A stretch of DNA of 24,417 nucleotides from a virus, in UHGV virus genome UHGV-0187105. One strand, given 5' to 3'. The notes under the pieces were generated by a model. The model searched no databases. It was given only the letters and a program-made list of their open reading frames with translations, and was not told the DNA's origin. The first letter of the stretch is position 1. Each line of letters starts with the position of its first letter. Of this stretch, positions 9,915 to 22,460 are shown piece after piece. Both the position numbers and the translations under genes were made by a program.

Positions 9915-10414
9915 GATTCGATGATTTTCAGAAACGGGTTAGTGGCTTTCTTCTGCCCCGCCAGGCCAATCAGACGCTGGCGGCTGCTGGGGTCGAGTCC
10001 GAGCATTGCCCCCGTGCTGCTCATCTCGGACTCCTGTTCTTTCTTGGCGGTCAGCTCCGGATTTTTGACCATGCCACCCATTGCACCGGTGATGGTGTTG
10101 CCCTGTCTGGCAATATTTTTCACGGCACGTCGCCAGAACTCGTAGGCCACGCACCACCGCTCAAGTACCGCCAAGTCAGTCACGCACAGCAGGCCCTGAC
10201 CGCAGAGTTCTTTGGTTGTCAGTTGCCACATGATCGTGGCGAGAGGGAGATCTTCTTCAGCGAACCACTCCGGTGGCTCAACACCTTTGATGGGCGTAAA
10301 AACAGGTTCATCTTTGTTCAGGGCTCGCTTGCCGGGGTTTCCGGCCAGCGCCTTGCGCGCCGTTGGCTTGGGGCGACGCCCGGAACGCCCCGCCGTTCCA
10401 GCCATATGCGGCAC
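9911..10414 (-). CDS. Terminase small subunit (P27-family-like)
   Basis: 167 aa basic N-terminus; the track start is GTG at 10414, but an in-frame ATG at 10405-10403 has AGGAG 8 nt upstream and is the more likely start. Confidence 0.75.
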
Positions 10415-13344: not shown

Positions 13345-13368
13345 AAAAAAGGCCGCCCGTAGGCGGCC
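13345..13368 (-). terminator. Intrinsic terminator directly upstream of the holin gene (tR'-like)
   Basis: Perfect hairpin ggccgcc-tacg-ggcggcc followed by TTTTTT on the minus strand, between the 67 aa ORF stop and the holin ATG; position matches lambda tR', which Q-modified RNA polymerase reads through. Confidence 0.6.
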
Positions 13369-13386
13369 TCAAAAATCTTATTTTCA

Positions 13387-13590
13387 TCATCGCGAAGGAT
13401 GGAGGGTTTTATGACGAGGTTTAATGTAAACCTCATAGGAATGAGACAGCTTGTCTACTTCTCTAATTGGTAATTCCCAACCAGTATTCAGCAGAATACT
13501 TTTCTGAGTAGCAGACACTAACACTGAGCCAATCTCAATATTATTTGCAATTGCCACGACCTTCTTGGTCGTGTGTTTACTATTTTGCAT
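13387..13590 (-). CDS. Hypothetical 67 aa protein in the Q-to-holin interval
   Basis: ATG at 13590 preceded by GGAGAT-cacc; lies in a visibly AT-rich stretch between a candidate promoter and the tR'-like terminator. No family recognised. Confidence 0.5.
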   Translation of the reverse strand: MQNSKHTTKKVVAIANNIEIGSVLVSATQKSILLNTGWELPIREVDKLSHSYEVYIKPRHKTLHPSR

Positions 13591-13591
13591 G

Positions 13592-13634
13592 GTGATCTCC
13601 TTTCAACCAGCATCACAAATGTGATGGAGATCAC
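13592..13634 (-). promoter_or_regulatory. Nested inverted repeat in the 5' leader of the 67 aa gene
   Basis: Outer perfect 9-bp inverted repeat gtgatctcc (13592-13600) / ggagatcac (13626-13634) enclosing an inner palindrome CATCAC-aaat-GTGATG (13611-13626); sits between the candidate promoter and the RBS. Confidence 0.4.
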
Positions 13635-13782: not shown

Positions 13783-14535
13783 CTATCGTGTCACTTTTTG
13801 CAACTGTAACTCTGCGAATGCTTCTTCCTGCCAGCACTTTGTTACCAGTTTATCAATGACGTCTGCATATCCTTTGTACCACTGATAATCCGTCAGGTCT
13901 GGTACCAGCTTCTGGACATGATGCCGCGCCAGTGTGGTTGGTAAACGGCTAAACCGGTTTCCATTGCAACGCCCACAAATCTTATAAACAGGCGTGCCAT
14001 GAAGCCGGGTCCTTTTTTCATCCAGGACAATACCTTTACCCTTACACCCTCTGCACGCTGTGCTGACTTCTCCCTTACCATGACAATGCTGACACAGTTC
14101 CTTCACCCACTCTTCCTTGATAACAGATTCCCCGCTTCTGGAGTGTTTTACCACCTCGCGCAATACATCATGAAATCCAGTACCAGCACAATGCTCACAG
14201 CGAGCCTTACTTGCCGCAGACCTGGAATAATCAGCAAAGGCAAAATTCACAAGGTAAGGGATGATCTGTAACCGGATTTCTTCACTCAATTTGTTCAATG
14301 TCGGGTTATTCAGTGCCATCGCGTAATTGAGCAGACCTTCAATCGCAAACTGAGGGTCCTGAACGCCAACTTTTGCCAGGAATAAGGCAAACCCAAGCGG
14401 TGCTTTCGACTGCACCATCCCCTGCGCAGCCATTACATCCGTAATTGTTAAACCACCCGAGCCTGTCGCCGGTGCGTCATCGCTCAGTTTTGGAGATTTC
14501 GGGGAGTAATATTTCGGTAAGGCTTCAAGGTTCAT
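13783..14535 (-). CDS. Late-gene antiterminator Q (QuuQ-type, zinc-finger repeats)
   Basis: 250 aa with four CxxC-type motifs (CEHCAGTG, CQHCHGKG, CRGCKGKG, CGRCNG), immediately upstream of the promoter/terminator/lysis-cassette arrangement. I recall the family as the 250 aa Qin-prophage QuuQ type. Confidence 0.7.
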   Translation of the reverse strand: MNLEALPKYYSPKSPKLSDDAPATGSGGLTITDVMAAQGMVQSKAPLGFALFLAKVGVQDPQFAIEGLLNYAMALNNPTLNKLSEEIRLQIIPYLVNFAFADYSRSAASKARCEHCAGTGFHDVLREVVKHSRSGESVIKEEWVKELCQHCHGKGEVSTACRGCKGKGIVLDEKRTRLHGTPVYKICGRCNGNRFSRLPTTLARHHVQKLVPDLTDYQWYKGYADVIDKLVTKCWQEEAFAELQLQKVTR

Positions 14536-19505: not shown

Positions 19506-20167
19506 GCGTTAGTTTCTCCACAGTCACGACACGCCACGGCGCCCGGAGCTGCACACTCGCGGGCGTCATTACTTTCTGAAATGCAAAAAATTTTGTAGAC
19601 CAGTGCTGCATGCTCCTGCAGCTTCGAAATTGAGAGATACAGCTCGTCGTTAATTGCTGTCTTCTCATGCGGTTCCACCACACCGTCTTCGATTGCCGAA
19701 CGAATCTGTCTGGAATAACTGCCAATCTGTTCAATGACTTCCAGCAGGCGCTGGTTAATATCGGCGTTGTCCACATCCTCGACGTCAGGAAGAGACACAA
19801 AGACGCCATTTGCAGACTGCGCCACAGCGTCAGCAATGAAGTGAGTTCCACCAGCACGTTGCAAAATCATTGCCCATCCCAGCGGGAAAATCTGATCGCC
19901 ATCGGCACGAAGGCGGTTAAATAATGCGTTTTCTGTTACATCCAGCCAGTCAGCTGCTTCAGCGTAACCACCCGGCAACGCTGCGATAGTTTTTCTGACA
20001 GCTTTCACGTACCACTCAGGCTGTTTTTCTACTTTCCAGTGATGCTTACCCACGGTTAGCCTCATCGTTCTGTGGTTTCTGTTAATCGATTTATCCATTA
20101 GATTTTTCATAAAGCTCAGGTTTAAATGGCAACCGTCCGCAAGTTCTATATGCAGCTTCTGCTGCAC
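19502..20167 (-). CDS. Early regulatory protein, CII/YdaT-like by position (family uncertain)
   Basis: 221 aa ORF directly downstream of the cro-like gene; annotated start overlaps cro by 77 nt, so the true start may be an internal Met (20110 or 20098). Confidence 0.4.
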
Positions 20168-20291
20168 GTCCTTTTGGAATTAACTGGCCCGGACGGTTTC
20201 GCCACTGATAAACGGCTTCAGTTGTTATGCCGAAAAAAGCAGCAACTTTCTCAATACTGCCGAAGTAGCTTTCGATATCGTCAGTTGTCAT
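20091..20291 (-). CDS. Cro-like HTH repressor (Cro/YdaS-type)
   Basis: 66 aa; HTH segment VAAFFGITTEAVYQWRNR; divergent from the CI-type repressor across a 97-bp operator region; GGAGG 4 nt upstream of the ATG. Confidence 0.7.
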   Translation of the reverse strand: MTTDDIESYFGSIEKVAAFFGITTEAVYQWRNRPGQLIPKGRAAEAAYRTCGRLPFKPELYEKSNG

Positions 20292-20388
20292 ACGCCCTCC
20301 AAACTAAGTTTTATTAGATGCTAATTACAAATCTATCTTTGGTCAATAAAAACTAAGATTACTTAGCAATTCAAGAAATGGTGCTCCT
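20292..20388. promoter_or_regulatory. Divergent immunity control region (OR-like operators with candidate pR)
   Basis: Repeated ACTAAG-core motifs (aaactaagtttt at 20301-20312; palindrome CTAAG-atta-CTTAG at 20353-20366). Candidate rightward promoter on the minus strand: TTGACC (20346-20341) - 17 nt - TAGCAT (20323-20318). Confidence 0.55.
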
Positions 20389-21015
20389 ATGGAAACGGTT
20401 GGTCAGCGTATAAAAGCTCTGAGAAGAGTTACCGGAACGTCCCAGAAAGAATTGGGTAAATTTTGTGGAGTAAGCGACGTTGCTGTGGGGTACTGGGAGA
20501 AAGACATCAATACCCCTGGTGGGGAGGCACTTTCGAAATTAGCGAAGTTCTTCAATACGTCAATAGATTACATTCTTTATGGTGCTGAGTTTGAAGGCAA
20601 ACTCGTCACAAACATGCGCAGAGTTCCTGTAATATCGTGGGTTCAGGCTGGGCAGTTTACTGAGTGCAGGGCAGCAGAAGTGTTTAGTGAAGTGGACAAG
20701 TGGGTAGATACATCATTAAAGATTGGTGATAACTCATTTGCATTAGAGGTTAAAGGTGACTCCATGACTAACCCTAATGGCCTCCCAACAATACCAGAAG
20801 GCGCAACAGTGATTGTAGATCCAGATGCAGAACCTCGTCATGGAAAAATAGTCATCGCTCGACTTGATGGAACAAACGAAGCTACAGTTAAAAAATTAGT
20901 CATCGATGGCCCTCAAAAGTTTTTAGTGCCATTAAATCCTCGGTATCCCAACATCCCTATCAATGGTAATTGCCTTATCATTGGTGTAGTCAAAGGAGTT
21001 CAATACGAACTCTAA
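20389..21015 (+). CDS. CI-type phage repressor (N-terminal HTH, C-terminal S24 LexA-like autopeptidase)
   Basis: 208 aa; N-terminal HTH (GTSQKELGKFCGVSDVAVGYWE); C-terminal domain with GDSM serine motif and a downstream Lys (VKKL) consistent with the Ser-Lys dyad of self-cleaving repressors. Confidence 0.85.
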   Translation: METVGQRIKALRRVTGTSQKELGKFCGVSDVAVGYWEKDINTPGGEALSKLAKFFNTSIDYILYGAEFEGKLVTNMRRVPVISWVQAGQFTECRAAEVFSEVDKWVDTSLKIGDNSFALEVKGDSMTNPNGLPTIPEGATVIVDPDAEPRHGKIVIARLDGTNEATVKKLVIDGPQKFLVPLNPRYPNIPINGNCLIIGVVKGVQYEL

Positions 21016-21100
21016 GACCTCTCTTCTCTAACTAAGGCACCGAACTAAGAAAAGTTTGGTGTTTTCTCTTGCCATAATAACTAAGTTAAGTTAGATTTTA
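21016..21100. promoter_or_regulatory. Second cluster of operator-like ACTAAG motifs immediately 3' of the repressor gene
   Basis: taACTAAGg (21030-21037), gaACTAAGaaaAGTTt (21043-21058), taACTAAGttaAGTTag (21079-21094): same core as the cro-proximal sites, two with an AACT-N6-AGTT inverted arrangement. Confidence 0.4.
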
Positions 21101-21221: not shown

Positions 21222-21497
21222 ATGAAAGTCCAGATTTTAAACAATAACTGTGAAGTCGTTTGGTCATACGACATAGCCGCCCCTGTAGATCAGAGCGGCG
21301 ATAGCTGGACCAATGGGAAACATCAGATTATGGCTGGAGTTGTGTTCTCTTTACGCCGTGCTTTGGAACAGGCTGAAGTATTTCCATCAGACCCTGAATG
21401 GAAATGGCCTTTTTCTATTTGTCCAAATTCGGAGAGCACATTTCAGAAAATTGGTCAGAAAGTCGCACTCGAAGAGCATCAGCCAACTGTTTCCTGA
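21222..21497 (+). CDS. Hypothetical protein at the rex-equivalent position downstream of the repressor gene
   Basis: Track ORF 21180..21497; in-frame ATG at 21222 has AGGTG 6 nt upstream and is the likely start (91 aa). 3' end overlaps a minus-strand ORF by 83 nt. Confidence 0.4.
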   Translation: MKVQILNNNCEVVWSYDIAAPVDQSGDSWTNGKHQIMAGVVFSLRRALEQAEVFPSDPEWKWPFSICPNSESTFQKIGQKVALEEHQPTVS

Positions 21498-21660
21498 TTT
21501 TTTCAGGTAACTCGTCGGCATCGCAGAAACAACAACGCTCGATCATGTTGAAAGCCGATTCGTAGAACTGTTTCTGCTGAGTGTCGCTGAGACAGGAAAA
21601 GAGCGACGTTACGATGATTTTATTAATTGCATTATCAAGTTCTTTTTCATCAAAAGTCAT
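21415..21660 (-). CDS. Hypothetical acidic 81 aa protein, antisense-overlapping the previous ORF
   Basis: ATG at 21660 preceded by AAGGAAAA about 8 nt upstream; balanced protein-like composition; transcribed toward the repressor gene. Confidence 0.4.
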   Translation of the reverse strand: MTFDEKELDNAINKIIVTSLFSCLSDTQQKQFYESAFNMIERCCFCDADELPEKIRKQLADALRVRLSDQFSEMCSPNLDK

Positions 21661-21779
21661 TTGATTTTCCTTTTATGTATACGGGCTTAAAAGGATACCA
21701 CCGAGCCTGAAGTGGTGAAAAGACAGGCACATAACAGCTAAGTATTTTCAACCAGAGAGAATCCTTAGCGTTGTGGTGA

Positions 21780-22090
21780 ATGCGGCTCAGCGCACGCGGG
21801 TTAAGGTTGAGGCTGACAGTCGACCTTCTGTGGATACCCACCCGCCTGGTGTGCAACCTTCGCCAGGCACCGGGAGGCACCCGGCACCACAACTTTATGC
21901 TGTGTGTAGTCCTGGCGGTACCAGTTTGTACCCTTGCTTCCGGCTGGTACCGTCCTTTTTACAAAACAGAGAAGAGCATCACCGGACGACGGGCTCATAA
22001 CCCAATCCATCCGGGCGGCAGTCACCGCAGGTGTTCTTCTCTGTTTTGTGGAGAAACTAACCGACCTTGCAGGGTCGATATGATGAGGAG
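21780..22090 (+). promoter_or_regulatory. GC-rich, hairpin-dense non-coding leader of the early-left operon (candidate cis-acting antitermination or attenuator RNA)
   Basis: No credible ORF; successive hairpins (tcagc...gctga 21786-21815; gcctgg...ccaggc; ccggg-aggca-cccgg), an internal terminator-like hairpin, then a 17/18-bp long-range stem acaaaacagagaagagca (21961-21978) / tgttcttctctgttttgt (22032-22049) just before the RBS of the first gene. Confidence 0.35.
21916..21960 (+). terminator. Terminator-like hairpin plus T-run inside the leader
   Basis: 9-bp stem cggtaccag / ctggtaccg with a 19-nt loop followed by tccttttt on the plus strand. Confidence 0.4.
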
Positions 22091-22097
22091 CAGCAAA

Positions 22098-22460
22098 ATG
22101 GCTAGCGAACGCAGTACTGATGTGCAGGCATTTATCGGGGAGCTGGACGGCGGCGTATTTGAAACCAAAATCGGCGCAGTTCTCAGTGAAGTCGCTTCCG
22201 GTGTGATGAACACGAAAACCAAAGGTAAGGTCTCACTCAACCTGGAAATCGAACCATTTGATGAAAACCGTGTGAAAATCAAACACAAACTCTCATATGT
22301 TCGCCCGACTAACCGCGGGAAAATTTCCGAAGAAGACACCACCGAAACGCCGATGTATGTCAATCGCGGTGGTCGCCTGACTATTCTGCAGGAAGACCAG
22401 GGACAATTACTGACTCTTGCCGGTGAACCTGACGGAAAACTCCGCGCAGCAGGTCATTAA
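22098..22460 (+). CDS. Hypothetical early protein (first gene after the leader)
   Basis: ATG at 22098 with GAGGAG about 9 nt upstream; the upstream part of track ORF 21780..22460 reads as translated non-coding sequence. Confidence 0.55.
   Translation: MASERSTDVQAFIGELDGGVFETKIGAVLSEVASGVMNTKTKGKVSLNLEIEPFDENRVKIKHKLSYVRPTNRGKISEEDTTETPMYVNRGGRLTILQEDQGQLLTLAGEPDGKLRAAGH

Follow-up and report, generated by a model that had tools for sequence, protein, structure and literature searches.

A divergent, operon-embedded copy of the STnc100 RNA family in the early-left leader of an SfV-like lambdoid prophage

Our analysis of a 24,417-nucleotide stretch of viral DNA (UHGV virus genome UHGV-0187105, hereafter the window) identifies the region at 21661–22097, directly ahead of the early-left genes, as the site of a real non-coding RNA, a divergent copy of the prophage small RNA (sRNA) family STnc100 that is embedded in an operon. 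The source is an SfV-like lambdoid prophage of Escherichia coli: positions 21400–22200, used as a query, are 99.9% identical to E. coli chromosomes, and Shigella phage SfV is 98.6% identical across 21661–22097. An initial annotation, made from the letters alone, had described a hairpin-dense leader with an internal terminator and had proposed a put-like antitermination RNA, an attenuator or riboswitch-like leader, or a small RNA gene. That observation is partly confirmed and its interpretation partly supported, in that a structured, non-coding cis RNA with an internal terminator does occupy the early-left leader of a phage without N. We read the element as a DicF-like cassette that combines an sRNA with an attenuator, the best of the explanations weighed here, held at somewhat less than even confidence.

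The family assignment begins with an end-to-end match. Rfam STnc100 (RF02076) aligns with 21740–21962 over model positions 1–206 of 206 at 43.1 bits and E 1.4e-7 (E 2e-6 when the whole window is scanned), and a permissive Rfam scan in E-value mode returned it as the sole meaningful match; at gathering thresholds, Rfam gave no match anywhere in the window. The 22-nt box of the family, CACCGGGAGGCACCCGGCACCA, is found exactly at 21868–21889, its single occurrence in the window, and closes helix P1 together with the box UGGUGAAU, exact at 21774–21781. Of 216 unique homologues, all but about 9 place the latter box 62–110 nt ahead of the 22-mer. Exact copies of the 22-mer are carried by more than 120 viral contigs and by 110 stretches from species-representative genomes (among the matches listed, about 85 different genomes), almost all of them from Enterobacterales. 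Likeness to STnc100, PasD1 and PasD2 extends to the same 5′ and 3′ boxes, the same P1–P5 layout and a terminator about 25–70 nt past the core. The window copy differs in its P2, of GCGGC rather than the CCCCC type of STnc100, and in its setting, since it has no promoter placing +1 at P1 and lies inside the PL operon, whereas STnc100 is a stand-alone gene between Q and the lysis genes. STnc100/PasD RNAs are expressed, Northern-verified, Hfq-dependent sRNAs (PMC5331693; PMC8550237; bioRxiv 2026.05.13.724894), and autonomous members accumulate as RNAs of about 190 nt in lysogens (PMC5331693). By Rfam scan and by 22-mer search, the core is present once in the window, with no further copy in the PR operon; in related loci, second copies were no more frequent than expected by chance, and the K-12 prophages CPS-53 and DLP12 held no copy. 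In the literature, the motif sequence turned up only as a quantitative PCR primer.

Folding of the homologues gives one architecture throughout, in which P1 and an AAU junction are followed by P2, a variable P3, P4 and P5 (Table 1). Core plus terminator fold only modestly better than shuffled sequences (z −2.4; 3/200); the reality of this fold rests on comparative evidence, not on energy. Counted jointly for P1, P2 and P5 over 52 sequences less than 80% identical, 55 cells are compensated by a change on both sides, against 21.2±3.4 after shuffling (0 of 500 shuffles as high), and the helices are 93.7% paired compared with 39–50% when slid. All 55 doubly changed cells lie in P1 and P2, because P5 is fixed by the search. 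A sample chosen by the 5′ box only shows P5 changing from CCGGG/CCCGG to CCUGG/CCAGG in 13 unique sequences, keeps its loop AGGCA in nearly all members (with two single-base variants, AAGCA and AGGCG), and shows P1 gaining G·U wobbles, pairing that is possible on the plus strand only. RNAalifold, applied to 17 sequences of the leader type described below, likewise predicts P1, P2 and P5. P4 fell out of register in MAFFT alignments, and P4 and the pseudoknot were therefore tested sequence by sequence, which supported both. Complementarity of the pseudoknot strands with their own partners averages 6.79 bp, against 5.51±0.17 with permuted partners (z 7.5; 0/20000), and the strands differ by lineage with their complementarity kept (CCAGUC/GACUGG, ACUGGU/ACCAGU, UAUCAGC/GCUGAUA, CAGUUAA/UUAACUG, UGGUUAU/AUAACCA). 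The pseudoknot is not seen in the STnc100 consensus line as printed by cmscan, a display unable to show pseudoknots, and the published family analysis used RNAalifold, which cannot predict them (bioRxiv 2026.05.13.724894). What may be new here is this pseudoknot, a leader-type subfamily with copies in K-12 Qin and phage P1, and a superfamily linked to boxA.

The region is also non-coding. Open reading frames (ORFs) over 21661–22097 match no PHROG and no other protein family, and homologue lengths spread over all three frame classes, in keeping with the earlier view that these frames are translated non-coding sequence. The initial annotation had named a conserved coding frame, or stems without covariation, as grounds for giving up an RNA; no frame is conserved across the homologues, and the stems do covary. 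A tRNA or tmRNA-like gene was not found, nor was an N-like arginine-rich ORF anywhere in the window, where only spurious overlapping frames turned up, just as had been noted at the outset. The G+C-rich stretch reported earlier proves to be the core only, with 63% G+C at 21771–21892 against 52% for the whole window. In a near-identical strain, the core, terminator and hairpin (21773–22083; L001 6374–6684) are covered by a PGAP pseudogene labelled ‘frameshifted hypothetical protein’, most likely an annotation artefact.

Table 1. Features of the leader RNA and its prophage context, in window coordinates
Feature	Position	Strand	Description and basis
Core RNA, STnc100-family domain	21770–21893	+	124 nt, five helices and a pseudoknot; Rfam alignment, 22-mer, covariation, minimum free energy (MFE) fold
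Helix P1	21770–21778 / 21885–21893	+	UGGUG/CACCA with covarying extensions
Junction J1/2	21779–21781	+	AAU
Hairpin P2	21782–21797	+	
Pseudoknot	21803–21809 / 21854–21860	+	AAGGUUG with P4-loop CAACCUU
P3	21810–21843	+	Variable
Hairpin P4	21845–21851 / 21861–21867	+	
Hairpin P5	21870–21884	+	CCGGG-AGGCA-CCCGG, stacked directly on P1
Linker, core to terminator	21894–21913	+	Mostly unpaired; in the MFE fold 21899–21902 pairs with the P1 extension and 21905–21909 with the U-tract
Intrinsic terminator	21914–21960	+	13-bp stem 21914–21926/21942–21954, 15-nt loop, U5 at 21956–21960; fold
Long hairpin	21956–22054	+	25-bp stem 21956–21980/22030–22054; fold
Small hairpin	22062–22077	+	6 bp, just 5′ of the ribosome-binding site; fold
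Shine-Dalgarno and yfdP start	22085–22100	+	GAGGAG at 22085–22090, start codon at 22098; PGAP start agrees
boxA-like position	21760–21767	+	Degenerate AAUCCUUA (4/8) in the window/SfV lineage; relatives carry UGCUCUUU
Segment with small hairpin	21697–21731	+	35 bp, ACCAC..GTGGT; 91–94% identical in lambda, P22 and many other lambdoid phages
Early-left promoter PL	21069–21097	+	TTGCCA-17-TAGATT, overlapped by operator AACTAAGTTAAGTTAGAT; promoter scan, operator resembles OR sites
cI	20389–21015	+	
cro	20091–20291	−	
Q (Pfam Antiterm)	13783–14535	−	Reached by the rightward operon, which runs on this strand
PR′-like site, strong tR′, holin gene	beyond Q	−	tR′ at 13370–13349
Early-left genes yfdP, yfdQ, yfdR and onward	from 22098	+	

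The core lies within the early-left operon, whose promoter is well upstream. Homology between SfV and the window starts just past PL, at about 21112, the SfV immunity region being different, and this fixes PL at its place in Table 1. PL lies about 650 nt upstream of the element, the non-coding interval itself beginning about 560 nt past the PL start, and a 91-codon ORF (21222–21497) comes in between, so that the RNA does not follow immediately after the early promoter as had been supposed. Between 21098 and 22097, the scan found no plus-strand promoter-like site scoring at least 9/12, which makes the early-left operon dependent on read-through. The PR operon, on the minus strand, shows no strong intrinsic terminator before Q. 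The repressor operators appear to be of the form CTAAG-N4/5-(C)TTAG and fall in two clusters, at about 20304–20366 (OR) and at 21012–21096, the last one overlapping PL. The motif CTAAG is scarce in the window (8 found against about 24 expected), and all but one of the eight are located at OR, at OL or in the leader. The CTAAG and CTTAG of the leader had been proposed as operators; they do exist, at 21738–21742 and 21764–21768 (one base from the positions first given), and we rejected them as operators, since SfV has a different repressor with TGTACC-type operators and yet keeps both.

The core directly precedes the only strong terminator between PL and the yfdP genes. This terminator, already recognized in the initial annotation as a hairpin with a T-run, starts 25 nt past the 22-mer and 21 nt past the extended P1, and in 17 close homologues five of seven substitutions in its stem preserve pairing. 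The linker ahead of it also marks a mosaic junction, since Stx and cdtI-type phages are homologous to the window from 21913 onward. The 5′ arm of the terminator and the beginning of its loop resemble DicF (UGGCGGUACCAGUUUGUAC in comparison with UGGCGGUAUCAGUUUUAC); the Rfam DicF model (RF00039) gives 15.7 bits (E 3.2) at 21901–21955, against a threshold of 48 bits that is not reached. As in DicF, the first seven bases of the 5′ arm GGCGGTACCAGT (21914–21925) are shared with the RfaH ops element (GGCGGTAG...), a likeness that is probably due to chance. Beyond the terminator, the long-range stem first described as 17/18 bp at 21961..22049 exists and is longer, at 25 bp. The fold of 21955–22100, which contains it, reaches −59.7 kcal/mol (z −6.2; 0 of 200 shuffles as stable), and in close homologues just 2 of the 50 positions of the stem show variation. 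Because the 5′ arm begins in the U-tract of the terminator, the long hairpin can form only in read-through transcripts, and we infer that it serves as an RNase III-type processing or stability element.

Within the family, most members are autonomous sRNA genes made of a promoter, a core and a terminator. An intrinsic terminator follows within 130 nt in 76% of 190 unique instances, and 41% have a sigma-70-like promoter; for 38 of these 77 promoters, the end of the −10 box is exactly 7 nt from UGGUG, on its upstream side. Stand-alone copies typically sit between Q genes (Pfam Antiterm, Phage_antitermQ) and KdgM-porin or holin genes, or after stxB. The window belongs to a different, leader-type subfamily (P2 = GCGGCUCAGCGCACGC; 29 instances in the first set) that is promoter-less and located downstream of cI in the early-left operon, a position conserved in many unrelated prophages; the genes that follow encode unrelated small phage proteins. 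Some leader-type members have a P1 of 15–21 bp, no terminator and a position 30–65 nt before a start codon, and in these Rfam matches the core only (model positions 31–147, 32–35 bits). Two such cores fall in classic systems. In the ban operon of phage P1 (AF234172, about 70066–70199; L004 2490–2623), a full core with an exact boxA-like UGCUCUUU lies 34 nt upstream of tciA, and we found no mention of it in the accessible literature; the same operon also carries an annotated ‘dicF-like region’. In the dicF–dicB spacer of the E. coli K-12 Qin prophage (NC_000913, about 1649439–1649596; L341 1640–1797), there is a full leader-type core that shares its P2 with the window and whose P1 has 21 bp; its pseudoknot pairs CAGUUAA with UUAACUG, and its P5 is CCUGG/CCAGG. 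Against STnc100 it reaches 34.4 bits (E 3.9e-5), and it ends 12 nt before the dicB Shine-Dalgarno sequence. This core is not mentioned in bioRxiv 2023.04.14.536235, and we found no RNase III data for the spacer in the literature.

The Qin operon is also a parallel for the way in which we think the window element may work. In both, an sRNA and an intrinsic terminator would lie inside a repressor-controlled operon of early-left type whose distal genes need read-through; the window terminator arm resembles DicF, and Qin shares the leader-type core, with a long stem that starts immediately past the terminator U-tract. DicF is made from a polycistronic transcript of this operon (bioRxiv 2023.04.14.536235). 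The order is reversed, running from DicF terminator to core to dicB in Qin and from core to terminator in the window, and, compared by eye, the window terminator does not conserve the loop with which DicF pairs to ftsZ. We suggest that, after prophage induction, transcripts from PL would traverse the 91-codon ORF and then the core, and that most would stop at 21960 and release a structured RNA, possibly trimmed at its 5′ side beforehand, with a 3′ hairpin and U-tail that would provide the usual Hfq-binding end. Such a route would be analogous to that of DicF within the homologous dicBF operon and to the ends of autonomous STnc100/PasD genes. The fraction that reads through would fold the long hairpin, where a cut by RNase III is probable, and would give the yfdP-yfdQ-yfdR... 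mRNA. In this way the terminator would set the level of early-left expression by attenuation, and the core would form the stable body of a trans-acting RNA. In this scheme we infer the transcript ends, the RNase III cut, Hfq binding and a trans target.

Several observations weigh against the DicF-like cassette. The STnc100 score stays below the 47-bit gathering score, and canonical copies reach 73–148 bits. No convincing sigma-70 promoter belongs to the window copy itself, the one candidate being GAGAAT at 21757–21762 with no −35, which implies that this copy would be silent in a lysogen, unlike the known sRNAs. Of the three proposals in the initial annotation, the small RNA gene is the one backed by a database match, which extends end to end; the subthreshold score and the missing promoter limit it. 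In those leader-type relatives that lack a terminator, the core must be more than the body of a terminated sRNA. Finally, the occurrence of four unrelated core variants ahead of one shared terminator, with a boxA-like motif in many of them, hints at a role in cis.

Such a cis role is the substance of the main rival, which we judge rather unlikely: the core would be an N-independent processive antitermination element of nut or put kind, and the nascent RNA, with boxA recruiting NusB/NusE in most relatives, would modify RNA polymerase so that it passes 21960 and later terminators. The window suits this explanation in having neither an N-like gene nor a promoter-like site (of at least 9/12) for the yfdP operon after the terminator, and so does the conserved position of the core downstream of cI and PL in unrelated prophages. 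In phage Lys8385Vzw the core begins about 10 nt after PL, a placement like that of putL. Other phages carry the window's terminator, long hairpin and yfdP leader at 96–98% identity behind a different core variant, and in all four variants precede this same module, namely the window's own, the P5-less variant of cdtI, the kissing-loop variant of Stx2a_1447 and Lys8385Vzw, and the short variant of L444 and similar contigs. The near-invariant parts of the RNA further suggest a conserved host partner.

The boxA-like motif deserves separate consideration. Among leader-type sequences, all matches of at least 7/8 lie exactly 14 nt before UGGUG; UGCUCUUU is exact in phage P1 and two other lineages and present at 7/8 in several more, and cdtI and Salmonella phage 118970_sal3 carry UGCUCUCA at this position. 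More than 100 unique viral sequences, together with phage P1, have a boxA-like UGCUCUUU/UGCUCUUA 2 nt before the extended P1 (GUUG-UGGUG), and the combined pattern TGCTCTYWYCGTTGTGGTGAAT occurs in more than 120 viral contigs. TGCTCT[YWY]CGTTGTGGTGAAT is carried by more than 120 viral contigs (L342–L459; for example L440, L441 and L454). The 3′ half is a different one in 93 of 104 unique sequences, with a P2 of GCGC-AGGCUGAU-GCGC and a last hairpin of CCGG-AGAUCAGCA-CCGG whose two loops are mutually complementary. Leaders that join boxA to a structured RNA appear to form a much larger superfamily. In these relatives, UGCUCUUU or GCUCUUA at a fixed short distance before a structured RNA in an early operon leader recalls lambda nut sites and rrn leaders. 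The window differs from lambda in having no N protein and a degenerate boxA position, and binding of NusB/NusE is putative. Compared with nut-type boxA (CGCUCUUA / UGCUCUUU), its position matches at 4/8, against 7–8/8 in relatives at exactly that position, and no boxA was found on the plus strand of the window leader. By eye, we saw no 15-nt boxB-type hairpin beside it.

Against antitermination by the core stand this degeneracy of boxA in the window, a resemblance noticed after the fact in any case, and the behavior of autonomous members, which terminate at their own terminators and accumulate as sRNAs in lysogens, so that the core alone is not an efficient antiterminator. The Qin core lies after the DicF terminator, and the PR operon is without a second copy. 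Likeness to the put RNAs of HK022 and HK639 is one of setting, that is, a structured RNA located in cis in the PL leader of lambdoid phages without N and upstream of terminators, and does not extend to sequence or architecture. The put RNA has about 70 nt and two stem-loops (PMC9378689), compared with about 120 nt, five helices and a pseudoknot here. Comparison of HK022 putL and putR with the window leader by blastn-short gave only 7–8-mers, an nhmmer profile of putL plus putR gave no match, the annotated HK639 putL aligns with HK022 putL and not with the window core, and Rfam finds no match at E ≤0.01 in the HK022 immunity region. Homology of the core to put is thereby not supported, and with it the put-like RNA of the initial annotation in the sense of common descent. 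In the sense of function, RNA-based antitermination may still apply and gains some indirect support from the boxA-like motif of the relatives. As a separate observation, the putL-like feature of HK639 (L460 10188–10313) contains a boxA-like GCUCUUUG at 10240–10255 on the minus strand, which falls in the 3′ portion of the feature and about 55 nt past the put-like stems.

A broader version of the antitermination idea, which we regard as doubtful, is that RNAs of the UGGUGAAU type are a large superfamily of N-independent nut-like elements, usually with a boxA 2 nt upstream of the extended P1, that would drive read-through of a DicF-like terminator in lambdoid phages without N through NusB/NusE or contact with RNA polymerase. 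Its members would include the STnc100-type core of the window, the P5-less variant of cdtI and the kissing-loop variant of Stx2a_1447 and Lys8385Vzw. If true, it would also apply to the dicBF operon of Qin and to ban in phage P1, and the abundant STnc100/PasD ‘sRNAs’ would be derivatives without boxA.

The remaining explanations fare less well. That the core is a module for RNA processing or stability only, insulating parts of the transcript, shielding 5′ ends from RNase E and offering RNase III sites in its long P1 or hairpins without any role in trans or on polymerase, is in our view improbable. The fixed spacing of the −10 box in 38 of the 77 autonomous cases would start the RNA at the base of P1, like 5′-terminal stabilizer hairpins, several leader types have a P1 of 17–25 bp (21 bp in Qin) 12–40 nt before a start codon, and in the window the 25-bp hairpin adjoins the ribosome-binding site; a simple stabilizer, however, would not require a pseudoknot that covaries, a P5 loop that is nearly invariant and an AAU junction that stays fixed across Enterobacterales. 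Highly improbable is a riboswitch-like aptamer that would switch the following terminator or ribosome-binding site through a small molecule. A pseudoknotted multi-helix junction with conserved junction nucleotides, placed in 5′ leaders ahead of a terminator or ribosome-binding site, has the general look of one, and a riboswitch-like leader had been among the first proposals; that proposal finds no support, in that no known riboswitch family in Rfam matches, the genes that follow are unrelated to one another, the family consists mostly of stand-alone sRNA genes and the Qin terminator precedes its core. No obvious alternative pairing between P1 and the terminator was seen by eye (no search was run), only a weak 7-bp complementarity between P4 and the terminator. 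Protein coding, whether as the frameshifted PGAP product or as an N-terminal extension of YfdP through the ORF 21780–22460 that shares its frame, or hairpins arising by chance, we consider practically excluded by the compensatory stem substitutions, the one-stranded G·U wobbles, the missing PHROG match and the frame-blind homologue lengths.

A few features lie outside the question of the core. The conserved 35-bp segment upstream of it corresponds to lambda 34395–34429, an intergenic stretch between sieB and orf28/ral in the PL operon, and a similar sequence, AAAAGACAGGCGCAT, precedes the core in a Lelliottia prophage (L132). Between PL and the leader, two convergent ORFs at 21222–21497 (+) and 21415–21660 (−) share 83 bp, match phrog_3195 and phrog_3311, and each have a plausible ribosome-binding site; probably only one of them is real, and both PGAP and the SfV record choose the plus-strand ORF. 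On the minus strand, between Q and the holin gene (13349–13606), a PR′-like promoter (TTGAAA-16-AATAGT) and the strong tR′ mark the two ends of a late leader RNA of about 220 nt, for which Rfam gave no family match. Matches to the isrK and C4/c4-a1b1 RNA families lie near the antirepressor regions of related Stx-type and cdtI phages (L058 2471–2669, L236 26–102); this window has none.

To our knowledge, the way in which lambdoid phages of the SfV/cdtI/yfdP type express the early-left operon in the absence of an N protein is not established. Should the element be only another STnc100 copy followed by a terminator, the outcome would be an ordinary annotation, plus the correction of a spurious PGAP pseudogene. 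The same RNA domain is found in two classic systems, the dicF–dicB spacer of K-12 and the ban operon of phage P1, and a widespread ‘orphan’ sRNA family of pathogenic E. coli (STnc100/PasD) is now linked to operon-leader elements that often carry a boxA-like motif. The K-12 copy makes the choice between a trans-acting sRNA and a Nus-dependent antiterminator, or both, accessible to standard genetics.

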